From: a phage
DNA: 64,000 nt
Sequence record: PX930851.1
Strand: one strand, 5' to 3'
Part shown: positions 11,744 through 59,218 of the stretch, in pieces
Numbering within the stretch: the first letter of the stretch is position 1
Layout: every line of letters begins with the position of its first letter
Notes under the pieces: model-generated
What the model saw: the letters and a program-made list of their open reading frames with translations, nothing else
Told to the model about the DNA's origin: nothing
The model's database searches: none
Program-made: the position numbers and the translations under genes

Positions 11744-12346
11744 TTATAGATTAAATCCTTCAAAATCAAGAGTATAGATAGTATATGTTGAATACTTTTT
11801 GTACTCATATCTATCTGCAATTCTAAATACACTTCCAGCTGGTATCATTACTTCTTGTTCATCTGAAACTAATTCCATATTACGATAACGATGGCTATCC
11901 GGAAACTTAAAGTTTGGATTGTATTCTTTACAGCGCAGAGCTTTTATAGCATACTCCTGGAAATTGAATACCATAGGAGCTTTGAATTCAAAAATAACTT
12001 GTGTGTTATACTCTAAACCGGAAGCAAAATGTAGAGCTATATTTTTATCATATGAAGCTGATACGACTTTATCAAATGTAATAATATCAATTCCTTGATT
12101 TAATACTTGTTTAGTCTCAGCTGGAACACCTCTCCAAAGAGGTTTATCGTTTGGTTCCAAACGAGATTTGATTATTTCATTTAACCAAGTATGGTCATCT
12201 GGTTTATTAGTAATACAATGAATTAAAAGTTCAATTTCAGATAAATTAAACCCTTCAGAAAGTAATTCTTCACGAATAGAAGCACGCACCGATGCATCCA
12301 TTGATTTTATTTTAAAATCTTTTAGTTGCATTACCGAGTATTTCAT
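11744..12346 (-). CDS. modA: ADP-ribosyltransferase ModA
   Basis: 200 aa; R-S-E type motifs (WRGV, SASY, QEVMIP); adjacent paralog. Confidence 0.6.
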   Translation of the reverse strand: MKYSVMQLKDFKIKSMDASVRASIREELLSEGFNLSEIELLIHCITNKPDDHTWLNEIIKSRLEPNDKPLWRGVPAETKQVLNQGIDIITFDKVVSASYDKNIALHFASGLEYNTQVIFEFKAPMVFNFQEYAIKALRCKEYNPNFKFPDSHRYRNMELVSDEQEVMIPAGSVFRIADRYEYKKYSTYTIYTLDFEGFNL

Positions 12347-12966
12347 TCAACTACCTCAATATCATAAACTTTAAATGTTCCAAATGAATCGTGTAATTTT
12401 TCTTTTGAAATAGAAGTTATTCTATACTTTCCAATTGGAATCATCCATTCCTGTTCACGCACAATCATCATTAAGTTATCAGTACGCTCTGAATCTAATC
12501 CATCAGTATCTTCATACGTGTACTTAAACTCAGTATTAGGAGAAGAAAGTATAATATCGCTGATATGGTCAGAATAATTAAAAGCTTTATCAGTTTTTAA
12601 GCGAAGTATTATTTTAGTAAAATATTCAGCGTAAGAAAAAGAACATGCTGTGAGCAAACTAGTAGTAAATGAATCTACTCTATTCGTTGAAAACACTTCT
12701 CCAACTTGTAAATCTTTAATAAGTTCTTCTGTTGATTTTGATATACCACGATATAACTGATATGGTGATTTAGTTAAATGCTTTTTAATGATTTTATTCA
12801 ATTGCCGATGAAGAGCTTCATTCTTTTTGGCTTCCATACATTGCCAAAGAACTGACTGCTCAAAGTCAGTAAATTTTTCACAGACCTTTTTATACATATC
12901 ATATTGAAAATCGACGCTTTCAGCTTTTATAGATAACTGTTCAACATCTGCAAGATTAATAATCAT
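12343..12966 (-). CDS. modB: ADP-ribosyltransferase ModB
   Basis: 207 aa; YRGIS, FTTS, EQEWMIP motifs. Confidence 0.6.
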   Translation of the reverse strand: MIINLADVEQLSIKAESVDFQYDMYKKVCEKFTDFEQSVLWQCMEAKKNEALHRQLNKIIKKHLTKSPYQLYRGISKSTEELIKDLQVGEVFSTNRVDSFTTSLLTACSFSYAEYFTKIILRLKTDKAFNYSDHISDIILSSPNTEFKYTYEDTDGLDSERTDNLMMIVREQEWMIPIGKYRITSISKEKLHDSFGTFKVYDIEVVE

Positions 12967-18196: not shown

Positions 18197-18838
18197 TTAA
18201 CCTTTATTCATAAAAGCATTAAAAATTTGATCGTCAATAGAAACATTTACTTTAGACTGTTTTTCTGATGGTAATTCATATCCACATATTACAATTTTGT
18301 GATCAATATCAAAATACACAGAAGCAATATGATTAATGATGTTTTCAGTAAAGTCTAAATCAACATCAATATCTTTTTGACCACAGCCCAAAGGATAAAT
18401 AATGCGAGTAATTCGATTATCTTTAACAAATATTCCACCGACATACTCTGTGCTGCGTTTAAAGTTTACACGTTTCCTAAATGAAAAATATTCAGGTTCT
18501 TTATGAGCCCGACTCATAGGACACAATGAGTAGCTAGAATAAGAGATGTCAAATCCTACACCTTCAATATGAGCCAACGCGTCATGATTAAACCAATTAT
18601 AATCATATGCCAAATCCATTATATTGTAATATGTGAAAGGCACCGGATTAACATCATGTGTTGTACCTTTAAAATCTGCCCAGGCAACGATTTCGTTATC
18701 TTTAACAATTACAAAAATTGTGTCAATAAGATATCCACGGTTATTTTCATCAGGCGTTATATTATAACATTGTGCATCAGGAAATTTACCGTATTTAAAC
18801 GGCGGATTTTTGTGCATATAATAAATCATATTATTCAC
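18197..18838 (-). CDS. hypothetical protein (61.2 position)
   Basis: 213 aa; C-terminus SIDDQIFNAFMNKG. Confidence 0.5.
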   Translation of the reverse strand: MNNMIYYMHKNPPFKYGKFPDAQCYNITPDENNRGYLIDTIFVIVKDNEIVAWADFKGTTHDVNPVPFTYYNIMDLAYDYNWFNHDALAHIEGVGFDISYSSYSLCPMSRAHKEPEYFSFRKRVNFKRSTEYVGGIFVKDNRITRIIYPLGCGQKDIDVDLDFTENIINHIASVYFDIDHKIVICGYELPSEKQSKVNVSIDDQIFNAFMNKG

Positions 18839-57659: not shown

Positions 57660-57841
57660 AATGAATTTATATAATCAATGAGTTCTTGTTCTTTATTATC
57701 GAATTCTTTAGAAAGTTCTTCGTACTCGTTTGCACTAAAAGGACCGCATTCATTACAAACTTTTTCCAATTCGCTATTTTTATCCATAACTTCGTGGATA
57801 AGAGAAAAGAGTTTGTCTTTTTGTTCTTTACTCAGACTCAT
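57656..57841 (-). CDS. hypothetical small acidic protein
   Basis: 61 aa. Confidence 0.45.
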   Translation of the reverse strand: MSLSKEQKDKLFSLIHEVMDKNSELEKVCNECGPFSANEYEELSKEFDNKEQELIDYINSL

Positions 57842-58007
57842 ATATTAAATCCTAGAAGTTTTAAGATAATTCGCTTTTGCTTAAATATTTCTATCGTTAA
57901 ATGATCAGTATCTTTTTGACCAATTCCAATAGCAAAACCCTTATTTACGGCAAGTTCAATTAAATTATCAATATTGCGTAAAACTTCATAGCGTAACTCA
58001 AAACTAT

Positions 58008-58235
58008 TCATTTTGGTTTACCTTCTTTAACGAAATCAGGATAAGGATAAAATCCTGAATAAAATCCTTCACCTTTATGATTGATGCATCCTTTATTAGA
58101 ACAATAGCACCAATAATCGAAATCACAAGCCATTTCATCGTTGCATAAAGCAAAAACAACCGGCCACTTACACTTTTCACAGTGGGCATTTTTAAGAATA
58201 CTAGTTTGGCTCATAACCATGTAACCTTTAAGCAA
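58008..58235 (-). CDS. Cys-rich small protein
   Basis: 75 aa with CEKCKW...CNDEMACD...CYCSNKGC. Confidence 0.4.
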   Translation of the reverse strand: MLKGYMVMSQTSILKNAHCEKCKWPVVFALCNDEMACDFDYWCYCSNKGCINHKGEGFYSGFYPYPDFVKEGKPK

Positions 58236-58423
58236 TATTCTTCTACATGTTGTTTACGACCTTTCTTATCAATAAAGGTATATTCAACGAATGTTCCAAT
58301 GTAGTCTTTATCTACATCATGTGGACTATTAATTGGACATTTAGTGCGGCAAATGCGTTCCCATTGACGAATAATTACTGCTTTGTTTTTAGGATCAAAC
58401 GGATGTGGGTAATGTACTTTCAT
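58211..58423 (-). CDS. hypothetical small protein
   Basis: 70 aa. Confidence 0.4.
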   Translation of the reverse strand: MKVHYPHPFDPKNKAVIIRQWERICRTKCPINSPHDVDKDYIGTFVEYTFIDKKGRKQHVEEYCLKVTWL

Positions 58424-58874
58424 AATCCACCACTATTAAATCAATATCAGGAGTAAACATGTCGATTAATTTAGAAACTTTATCCCAATCGCCGCCAGCA
58501 ATACCACAACCTATACGTGGAATGTAAATTACCGGTTTAAACAAAAGGGTTTCTGCCTGTAGATTTAATTCTATCATGCAGTTTACTAAAGCACCATAAT
58601 CAAGATTAGGACCTGGTTCGTATTGCGTATACAAGTTATAACATATGCCAAACCCATTAGGTTTATGTTTAAAAACAATAGACACATCACCGAGTTTTTC
58701 ACGCGAACCATATTCAGTTGTGGTCTTATCTATTTCTAAAATTTTGGGATAGGCTCTTGCTAATTGACCAGCTACACCACTGCCCATTGTATGAAAACAG
58801 TTACACCCGTGCGCAATAATATTACCTTCAAGAAAGAGGGCGACAATATCGCCCTTGATATATTTTACAATCAT
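58395..58874 (-). CDS. macro-domain-like protein (possible ADP-ribose binding/hydrolase)
   Basis: 159 aa; HGCNCFHTMGSGVAGQL and IPRIGCGIAGG glycine-rich motifs. Confidence 0.45.
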   Translation of the reverse strand: MIVKYIKGDIVALFLEGNIIAHGCNCFHTMGSGVAGQLARAYPKILEIDKTTTEYGSREKLGDVSIVFKHKPNGFGICYNLYTQYEPGPNLDYGALVNCMIELNLQAETLLFKPVIYIPRIGCGIAGGDWDKVSKLIDMFTPDIDLIVVDYESTLPTSV

Positions 58875-59218
58875 CTAGTACTCAATCCTCGATTATAAGA
58901 ATCTACTAAACGGTCAACCATTGAATGACAAGCGGCTTTATCTTTTTCCTCCGCAACTGAACATTCTAGGGTATTCCACTTTTTAGCATATCGTTTTAAT
59001 AATGTATCGTTTTTGTATCTGCTTGATTTATCTCTTTCTCCGTCTTTATATGCATATATTAATTTCTGCGCAAATTCAGCTTGGCATGCTTTATTTTTCC
59101 CACAATAATCTGCCGCAGTGCGGTTCACATACTCCCTAATTTCAGTATATGATGTATCTGCTGACGCATAAGCAGAAAATGAAATTAATCCTATACATAA
59201 AACCAAAATTTTAGTCAT
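58871..59218 (-). CDS. secreted protein
   Basis: 115 aa with signal peptide MTKILVLCIGLISFSAYASA. Confidence 0.5.
   Translation of the reverse strand: MTKILVLCIGLISFSAYASADTSYTEIREYVNRTAADYCGKNKACQAEFAQKLIYAYKDGERDKSSRYKNDTLLKRYAKKWNTLECSVAEEKDKAACHSMVDRLVDSYNRGLSTR

Follow-up and report, generated by a model that had tools for sequence, protein, structure and literature searches.

The 64,000-nucleotide stretch of phage DNA considered here (sequence record PX930851.1, hereafter the window) encodes on its minus strand, at 58395..58874, a protein of 159 amino acids (aa) that is a genuine macrodomain protein and the product of the positional orthologue of phage T4 tk.4, a gene since renamed adfM. 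We regard it as likely that this stand-alone macrodomain is a DNA-ADP-ribose hydrolase directed against DarTG2 and using chemistry like that of the cellular macrodomain SCO6735. On this explanation tk.4, one of a run of small overlapping genes, would be expressed from the early-gene strand, and its product would most likely bind the ADP-ribose that host DarT2 places on thymidine N3 of single-stranded phage DNA; hydrolysis of the glycosidic bond would then restore replicable DNA and permit escape from DarTG2. The chemistry would probably be that proposed for SCO6735 rather than that of DarG, with Q84, held by N25, positioning the distal ribose, and with water, not a catalytic lysine, starting the reaction. 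The fold, the family, the conservation of motifs and the positional orthology were computed here, and the genetic evidence that T4 needs tk.4 against DarTG2 comes from other workers and is limited to the T4 allele; the DNA glycohydrolase activity and its mechanism are what we infer for the window allele, which is 58% identical to that of T4.

That the open reading frame (ORF) is a real gene, and not a chance reading frame, follows from its matches to known sequences: a sequence cluster matched it at E=5e-100, with 789 homologues at E<=1e-5, a tblastn search with the window protein found matches in 2787 phage records, and PHROG 335, a family named 'phosphatase', matched at E=2.5e-71. The ORF starts with ATG, and its translation holds both of the glycine-rich motifs quoted in the first-pass annotation, GCNCFHTMGSGVAGQL as residues 23-38 and IPRIGCGIAGG as residues 118-128, the codons of the latter falling at 58491..58523 in a hand check. 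The window derives from a T4-like phage (Tequatrovirus): over the 1.3 kb around tk.4 it shares 99.3% identity with Escherichia phages EPIMRB01 and AUBRB02, and matches to this segment occur in 729 records of T4-like phages. The gene order, consisting of rI, rI.1, tk, tk.1, tk.2, two extra small ORFs, tk.3, tk.4, vs, vs.1 and regB, is around tk.4 the order of T4 (tk.3-tk.4-vs). Because it lies between vs and tk.3 with the T4 gene order kept, the ORF occupies the tk.4 slot of T4, and its product aligns with T4 Tk.4 ungapped over 155 aa at 58% identity (E=5e-70).

The gene was thus already known, an identity that the first-pass annotation missed. It has carried a macro/A1pp annotation since the T4 genome was annotated, RefSeq describing T4 tk.4 as "phosphatase; Tk.4; contains A1pp phosphatase motif", and a protein of phage vB_EcoM_G4507 that is 99% identical to the window protein is labelled 'macro domain protein' or 'phosphatase'. 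The labels YmdB / 'RNase III inhibitor' and 'ABC transporter ATP-binding protein', found in some GenBank records, were rejected as mis-propagated annotation. The T4 orthologue is, moreover, an anti-DarTG2 factor on genetic grounds. In a 2025 preprint describing HIDEN-SEQ, a T4 transposon library was grown on a DarTG2-expressing host and returned tk.4 as the single significant hit; a clean tk.4 knockout rendered T4 sensitive to DarTG2, and the gene was renamed adfM, for anti-DarT factor Macrodomain (10.1101/2025.11.20.689424). The existence of a further factor had been predicted from the observation that T4 without adfA and adfN (gene 30.3, a NADAR) stays DarTG2-resistant (PMC11825919). Alone among the three functions put forward in the first-pass annotation, reversal of host ADP-ribosylation therefore has experimental backing in the DarTG2 sensitivity of the T4 tk.4 knockout, a result that concerns the T4 allele, and the assay proposed there, a challenge with ADP-ribosylating defence toxins, had been performed by others for T4 tk.4 with a positive outcome (10.1101/2025.11.20.689424).

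The assignment to the macrodomains, originally drawn from the two glycine-rich motifs, is borne out by both profile and structure. The Pfam family Macro (PF01661) matches at 34 bits against a gathering cut-off of 22, with residues 22-136 covering model positions 2-117 of 118. Prediction from the single sequence with AlphaFold gave an unusable model, with a predicted local distance difference test score (pLDDT) of 36.4, and was repeated with an alignment of 101 homologues; the resulting AlphaFold 2 (AF2) model has a pLDDT of 93.8, a predicted template modelling score of 0.89, and the alternating order of strands and helices of a three-layer alpha/beta/alpha macro fold, residues 156-159 falling below a pLDDT of 50. 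The suggestion that structure prediction be used to look for a non-macro fold was answered by Foldseek, which found macrodomains only: each of the 50 PDB matches listed, at probability 1.00 throughout, is either a macrodomain or an enzyme whose design started from a macrodomain scaffold. The top match is TARG1 (4j5r, E=2.7e-10, template modelling (TM) score 0.82), accompanied by Poa1p (6lfr, TM 0.74-0.78) and BT1257 (2fg1/2afc), and next come the DarG macrodomains 5m31, 5m3i and 5m3e (TM ~0.75), SCO6735 (5e3b) and then coronavirus Mac1. A search of PDB sequences with the family profile recovered the same proteins, namely BT1257 (1e-19), TARG1 (1.6e-16), SCO6735 (9e-16), Poa1p (8.5e-15) and DarG (1.7e-11). 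Because the Foldseek and profile matches are TARG1, Poa1p, BT1257, DarG and SCO6735, the window protein is placed in the ALC1/TARG1-like class. It is not a member of the MacroD/YmdB-type O-acetyl-ADP-ribose deacetylases, whose NCBIfam models it matches at 18 bits, the cut-off being 291. The best NCBIfam model and the best PADLOC model are both DarG, and cover the macro part only.

Within this class, the residues at the active site point to a particular branch. In the alignment of 101 homologues of the window protein, from which all conservation figures are taken and which was the set supplied to AF2, residues H22, G23, N25, C26, G33, A35, N80, Y82, Q84, P119 and W130 are invariant, and G122, G124, A126, G127 and G128 nearly so. 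The protein possesses the conserved asparagine and the two glycine-rich loops of the Macro domain, the first of which (HGCNCFHTMGSGVAGQL) contains N25; this residue aligns with the corresponding Asn of DarG and with N23 of PhiKZ AdfM, in which the substitution N23A reduces activity (PMC13309987). Three procedures (profile-to-PDB alignment, hmmalign and MAFFT L-INS-i) agree in placing NLYTQ84 opposite YLITK84 of TARG1 and NFPTK80 of DarG, and A126 stands where TARG1 has D125. SCO6735 also carries a glutamine, Gln85, at the position of the catalytic lysine and is without both TARG1 residues; it takes ADP-ribose off thymidine in DNA and confers protection from DarT toxicity, its activity is abolished by Q85A and nearly so by N27S, a substitution at the counterpart of N25, and a water-initiated mechanism has been proposed for it (PMC9411070). 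Because the Gln-type SCO6735 is active, the exchange of Lys for Gln in the Tk.4 family is no evidence of an inactive enzyme. A second point of agreement is loop 2, which in the window protein, as in SCO6735 and BT1257, carries the motif PRIGCG[IL]AGGxW and in which none of the three has TARG1 Asp125 (PRIGCGIAGGDW in window Tk.4, PRIGCGLAGGTW in SCO6735 and PRIGCGLAGGKW in BT1257). Since it has Q84, N25 and the shared loop-2 motif, Tk.4 is assigned by sequence to the Gln-type branch typified by SCO6735 and BT1257, and by analogy would use an SCO6735-like mechanism. The equivalence of its glutamine to that of SCO6735 was drawn from the shared TARG1/DarG lysine column in combination with the published structure-based alignment, phmmer having aligned only the loop-2 segment.

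Comparison with individual macrodomains helps to place the phage protein. SCO6735 (5e3b) and BT1257 (2afc/2fg1), the latter being the best PDB sequence match of the family profile, resemble Tk.4 in the glutamine in place of the catalytic lysine, in the loop-1 asparagine and in the loop-2 motif, but they are cellular and not phage proteins and are only ~24-28% identical to the window protein. TARG1/OARD1 (4j5r), the top structural match, differs in its catalytic dyad, K84/D125 being replaced by Q84/A126. DarG of DarTG2 (5m31/5m3e from T. aquaticus and 5m3i from M. tuberculosis) shares with the window protein the macro fold and the presumed substrate, but has K80 where Tk.4 has Q84, and it also has a C-terminal DarT-binding domain that the 159-aa phage protein, matching only model positions 2-142 of 338, lacks; the neighbours of tk.4, moreover, are vs and tk.3, with no adjacent darT. 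Membership of the window protein in DarG was accordingly rejected, Lys80 and the C-terminal domain being absent and the score against the DarG model NF048014 (26.3 bits) being far below the equivalog cut-off of 250. A further stand-alone phage macrodomain that counters DarTG2, PhiKZ gp104, has also been named "AdfM", and removes DarT2-made ADP-ribose from DNA in vitro (Cell Rep 2026, PMC13309987). PhiKZ AdfM is of another subfamily than Tk.4: its match to M. tuberculosis DarG has E=9e-25, it has kept the lysine of the FPTK motif, and BLASTP finds between it and window Tk.4 only a local match of 31 residues (E=0.001). T4 Tk.4 and PhiKZ gp104 are analogous members of one macrodomain class, and not orthologues.

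Although T4 Tk.4 is like the window protein in slot, length class and the invariant residues H22, N25, Q84 and G128, and is nearly identical to it over the first 35 residues, the window gene is a strikingly divergent allele. Proteins encoded around it are 99% (Tk), 97% (Tk.1), 98% (Tk.2), 96% (Tk.3), 99% (Vs), 99% (Vs.1) and 100% (RegB) identical to those of T4, as against 58% for Tk.4, and the divergence is confined to a patch that was delimited by sliding 60-nt identity on a global alignment of the window and T4. In loop 2 the window protein has GCGIAGGDW, the family consensus, and T4 has GAGIGKGNW; the active-site residues of the two alleles are identical. The tk.4/tk.3 junction has a 13-nt deletion relative to T4, as a result of which the window tk.4 product is four residues longer at its C-terminus (159 versus 155 aa) and tk.4 overlaps tk.3 by 29 nt. 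The T4 allele is also that of T2 (100% identity) and T6 (99%). Both alleles are common, the window type being found at >=90% identity in 317 phage records, and the T4 type at >=95% identity in 221 records and at 80-90% in 159 more. Orthology and the conserved active site predict for the window allele the function of its T4 counterpart. It is conceivable, though we think it unlikely, that the allele replacement reflects diversifying selection in an arms race, that the window and T4/T2/T6 alleles differ in the DarT2 variants or ADP-ribosylated nucleic-acid substrates that they neutralise, and that tk.4 alleles serve as interchangeable specificity cassettes. Elsewhere in the window, local divergence recurs in the homologue of T4 gp61.2 (18200-18829, minus strand), whose identity to T4 is only 78%, against 98-99.6% for dda, srd and modA close by; AdfA, an anti-DarT factor, is a possible identity of gp61.2.

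Several points weigh against the view of Tk.4 as an SCO6735-like DNA-ADP-ribose hydrolase. The authors of the preprint say of enzymatic removal of ADP-ribose from DNA by T4 AdfM only that it "seems likely" (10.1101/2025.11.20.689424), and the in vitro de-ADP-ribosylation data on a protein named AdfM come from that of PhiKZ. The sequence similarity of Tk.4 to Poa1p is about as strong as that to DarG, and the catalytic lysine of DarG is absent from the window protein. BT1257 has, in the profile alignment, an insertion of 6 residues after the glutamine relative to the Tk.4 family, and the comparison with SCO6735 is indirect. By that alignment the Tk.4 family would be without the longer mobile loop of SCO6735, reported to exceed that of DarG and TARG1 by five residues and to bear K89 and K94, the former of which has a part in the activity on DNA (PMC9411070); in window Tk.4 the loop that follows the glutamine reads YEPGPNLDY and has no lysine, and pairwise phmmer places the gap differently. 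Tests of DarTG2 located in the literature concern the T4-type allele (that of T4, shared by T2 and T6) and none concern the window allele.

Other activities have therefore to be weighed. One is that Tk.4 hydrolyses a small-molecule derivative of ADP-ribose, whether as a Poa1p-like ADP-ribose-1''-phosphate (Appr1p) phosphatase, as an O-acetyl-ADP-ribose deacetylase or as a degrader of an ADP-ribose (ADPr) immune signal. We judge this unlikely. An A1pp phosphatase motif is annotated in T4 and many of its relatives and the name of PHROG 335 agrees with it, but the annotation of tk.4 was made by homology only; Poa1p, which acts as a phosphatase on Appr1p, is among the best matches in sequence and in fold and has an N-terminal H-x-C-N-C...G-x-G motif in common with Tk.4, but the only reported tk.4 phenotype is sensitivity to DarTG2. 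A survey argued that small ADPr derivatives are the main targets of the Macro domains of phages (PMC9503650). Against such an activity of Tk.4 stand the low score of the deacetylase models mentioned above and, within the neighbourhood of tk.4 that was examined, the lack of any gene annotated as an Appr1p producer, such as a Tpt1/KptA homologue. Phosphatase and DNA-ADPr hydrolase activities are in any case compatible, and the former may be a side activity of Tk.4. It is also possible, with a probability that we consider low, that Tk.4 disarms DarT2 or some other toxin chiefly through binding, acting either as a stoichiometric inhibitor or as a reader of ADP-ribose. This would be in keeping with the absence of the catalytic lysine, with the finding that SCO6735 Q85A, though catalytically dead, continues to inhibit DarT in vitro by interaction and does so more strongly than DarG or TARG1 mutants (PMC9411070), and with the sharply localised replacement of the tk.4 allele, which would fit co-evolution with a protein partner. 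However, the glutamine, the asparagine and the glycine-rich loops on which SCO6735 catalysis depends are invariant in the 101 diverse family members, and because the catalytic residues are invariant it is an active site, and not a variable binding surface, that appears to be conserved; Tk.4 is also without the domain through which DarG binds DarT.

An equally low probability attaches to the idea that Tk.4 acts on other nucleic-acid ADP-ribosylation, such as uracil-ADPr RNA, or counters another DarT-like toxin, with the alleles differing in target. TARG1, DarG and SCO6735 do reverse uracil-ADPr on RNA (PMC13036486), and an allele with 58% identity between flanks of 96-100% identity might differ from the tested one in target, but the two alleles do not differ in their active-site residues. 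Very improbable, finally, is the link that the first-pass annotation suggested between the macrodomain and the phage's own enzymes, by which Tk.4 would reverse or edit ADP-ribosylation or RNAylation by Alt, ModA and ModB. The window does encode ModA and ModB, as the annotation had stated, both as intact ORFs whose identity is secured by 96-98.5% identity to the T4 proteins, although Pfam matched no family in either. Their genes are 46 kb from tk.4 and share no operon with it, and the distributions of the families differ, ModA-family matches being found in 929 phage records, all of the genera listed being of enterobacteria, and the Tk.4 family in 2787 (~3x as many), among them 184 Pseudomonas, 139 Vibrio, 93 Acinetobacter and 86 Aeromonas phages. 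From these two totals it follows that most carriers of the Tk.4 family have no detectable Mod homologue, and the link to ModA/ModB is not supported. Alt and the Mod enzymes modify arginine, whereas the substrates of the TARG1-like class are Glu/Asp esters and the N3 of thymine and uracil; to our knowledge arginine is not among them, which counts against such a role, though not absolutely given MavL. Arginine-specific macrodomains of which MavL is an example do exist, judging from the reference list of one paper (PMC13036486). In the panels of a further study SCO6735 showed no activity on ADP-ribosylation linked through a 5'-phosphate or a 2'-OH, although the discussion there also calls it active on RNA phosphate ends (PMC11833690).

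Features of the window, with coordinates on its 64,000 nucleotides
Feature	Coordinates	Strand	Basis or remark
tk.4 / adfM orthologue, 159-aa single-domain macrodomain protein	58395..58874	-	ORF, Pfam, AF2, Foldseek, homology
Loop 1, residues H22-L38: conserved Asn N25 and Gly-rich phosphate-binding loop	58761..58811	-	
NLYTQ, residues N80-Q84: Q84 at the catalytic-Lys position of DarG K80 / TARG1 K84	58623..58637	-	
Loop 2, residues I118-G128 (IPRIGCGIAGG): Gly-rich, predicted ADP-ribose cleft	58491..58523	-	
Divergent patch relative to T4, 47-68% DNA identity	about 58380..58800	-	97-100% identity on both sides
vs (valyl-tRNA synthetase modifier), upstream neighbour	58871..59218	-	99% identical to T4 Vs
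ATGA overlap of tk.4 start codon and vs stop codon	58871..58874	-	ORF coordinates and sequence
tk.3 (DUF7202), downstream neighbour	58211..58423	-	96% identical to T4 Tk.3; Pfam DUF7202, 132 bits
Overlap of tk.4 3' end and tk.3 start, 29 nt	58395..58423	-	encodes extra low-confidence C-terminal tail of Tk.4
ModA	11744..12346	-	intact ORF, 98.5% identical to T4 ModA
ModB	12343..12966	-	intact ORF, 96% identical to T4 ModB

The arrangement of tk.4 with respect to its neighbours is compact at both ends. The ATGA overlap with vs would be expected to couple translation of the two genes, and tk.3 begins, in a different frame, before tk.4 has ended, the overlap in T4 being only 4 nt. A terminator-like hairpin at 58837-58855 (minus strand), consisting of an 8-bp GC-rich stem followed by a T-rich run, is situated 20 nt inside tk.4, where identity to T4 is 100%. 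It was rejected as an attenuator, since its folding energy is like that of shuffled sequences (z = -1.64, 14 of 200 shuffles folding as well) and the DNA encodes the conserved KGDIVALF motif. A search for promoters found sigma-70-like sites to be fewer than in shuffled sequences (12 versus 21.1), and none was assigned. Between tk.2 and tk.3 there are ~370 nt (57842-58210) not present in T4, with two small ORFs on the minus strand (57838..58011 and 58008..58214) that are also found in T2 and T6, where they are annotated RB32ORF110c and RB32ORF111c; the second encodes a Cys-rich protein of 68 aa that matches Pfam Phage_zn_bind (PF23895) at 101.7 bits.

Outside the T4-like phages, Tk.4-like genes are found in different company. 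In Vibrio phage VF16 (LC811684.1, 19927-20340) a Tk.4-like macrodomain gene adjoins an annotated ribose-phosphate pyrophosphokinase, a neighbourhood that could indicate a link to phage recycling of NAD+ or ADP-ribose rather than to DarT. In a Microbacterium phage (94264-94695) a Tk.4-like macrodomain match lies inside a feature annotated as an ADP-ribosyltransferase, which suggests a fused or adjacent transferase-macrodomain pair resembling a toxin-antitoxin system.

The name AdfM, given independently in two studies, now covers two phage macrodomains that are not orthologous, T4 Tk.4 and PhiKZ gp104, and, as AdfM of the T4 type is without the catalytic lysine of DarG, the DarG mechanism should not be assumed for it. 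Regardless of how they came about, at least two common and highly divergent tk.4 alleles are carried by Tequatroviruses in backbones that are otherwise near-identical.

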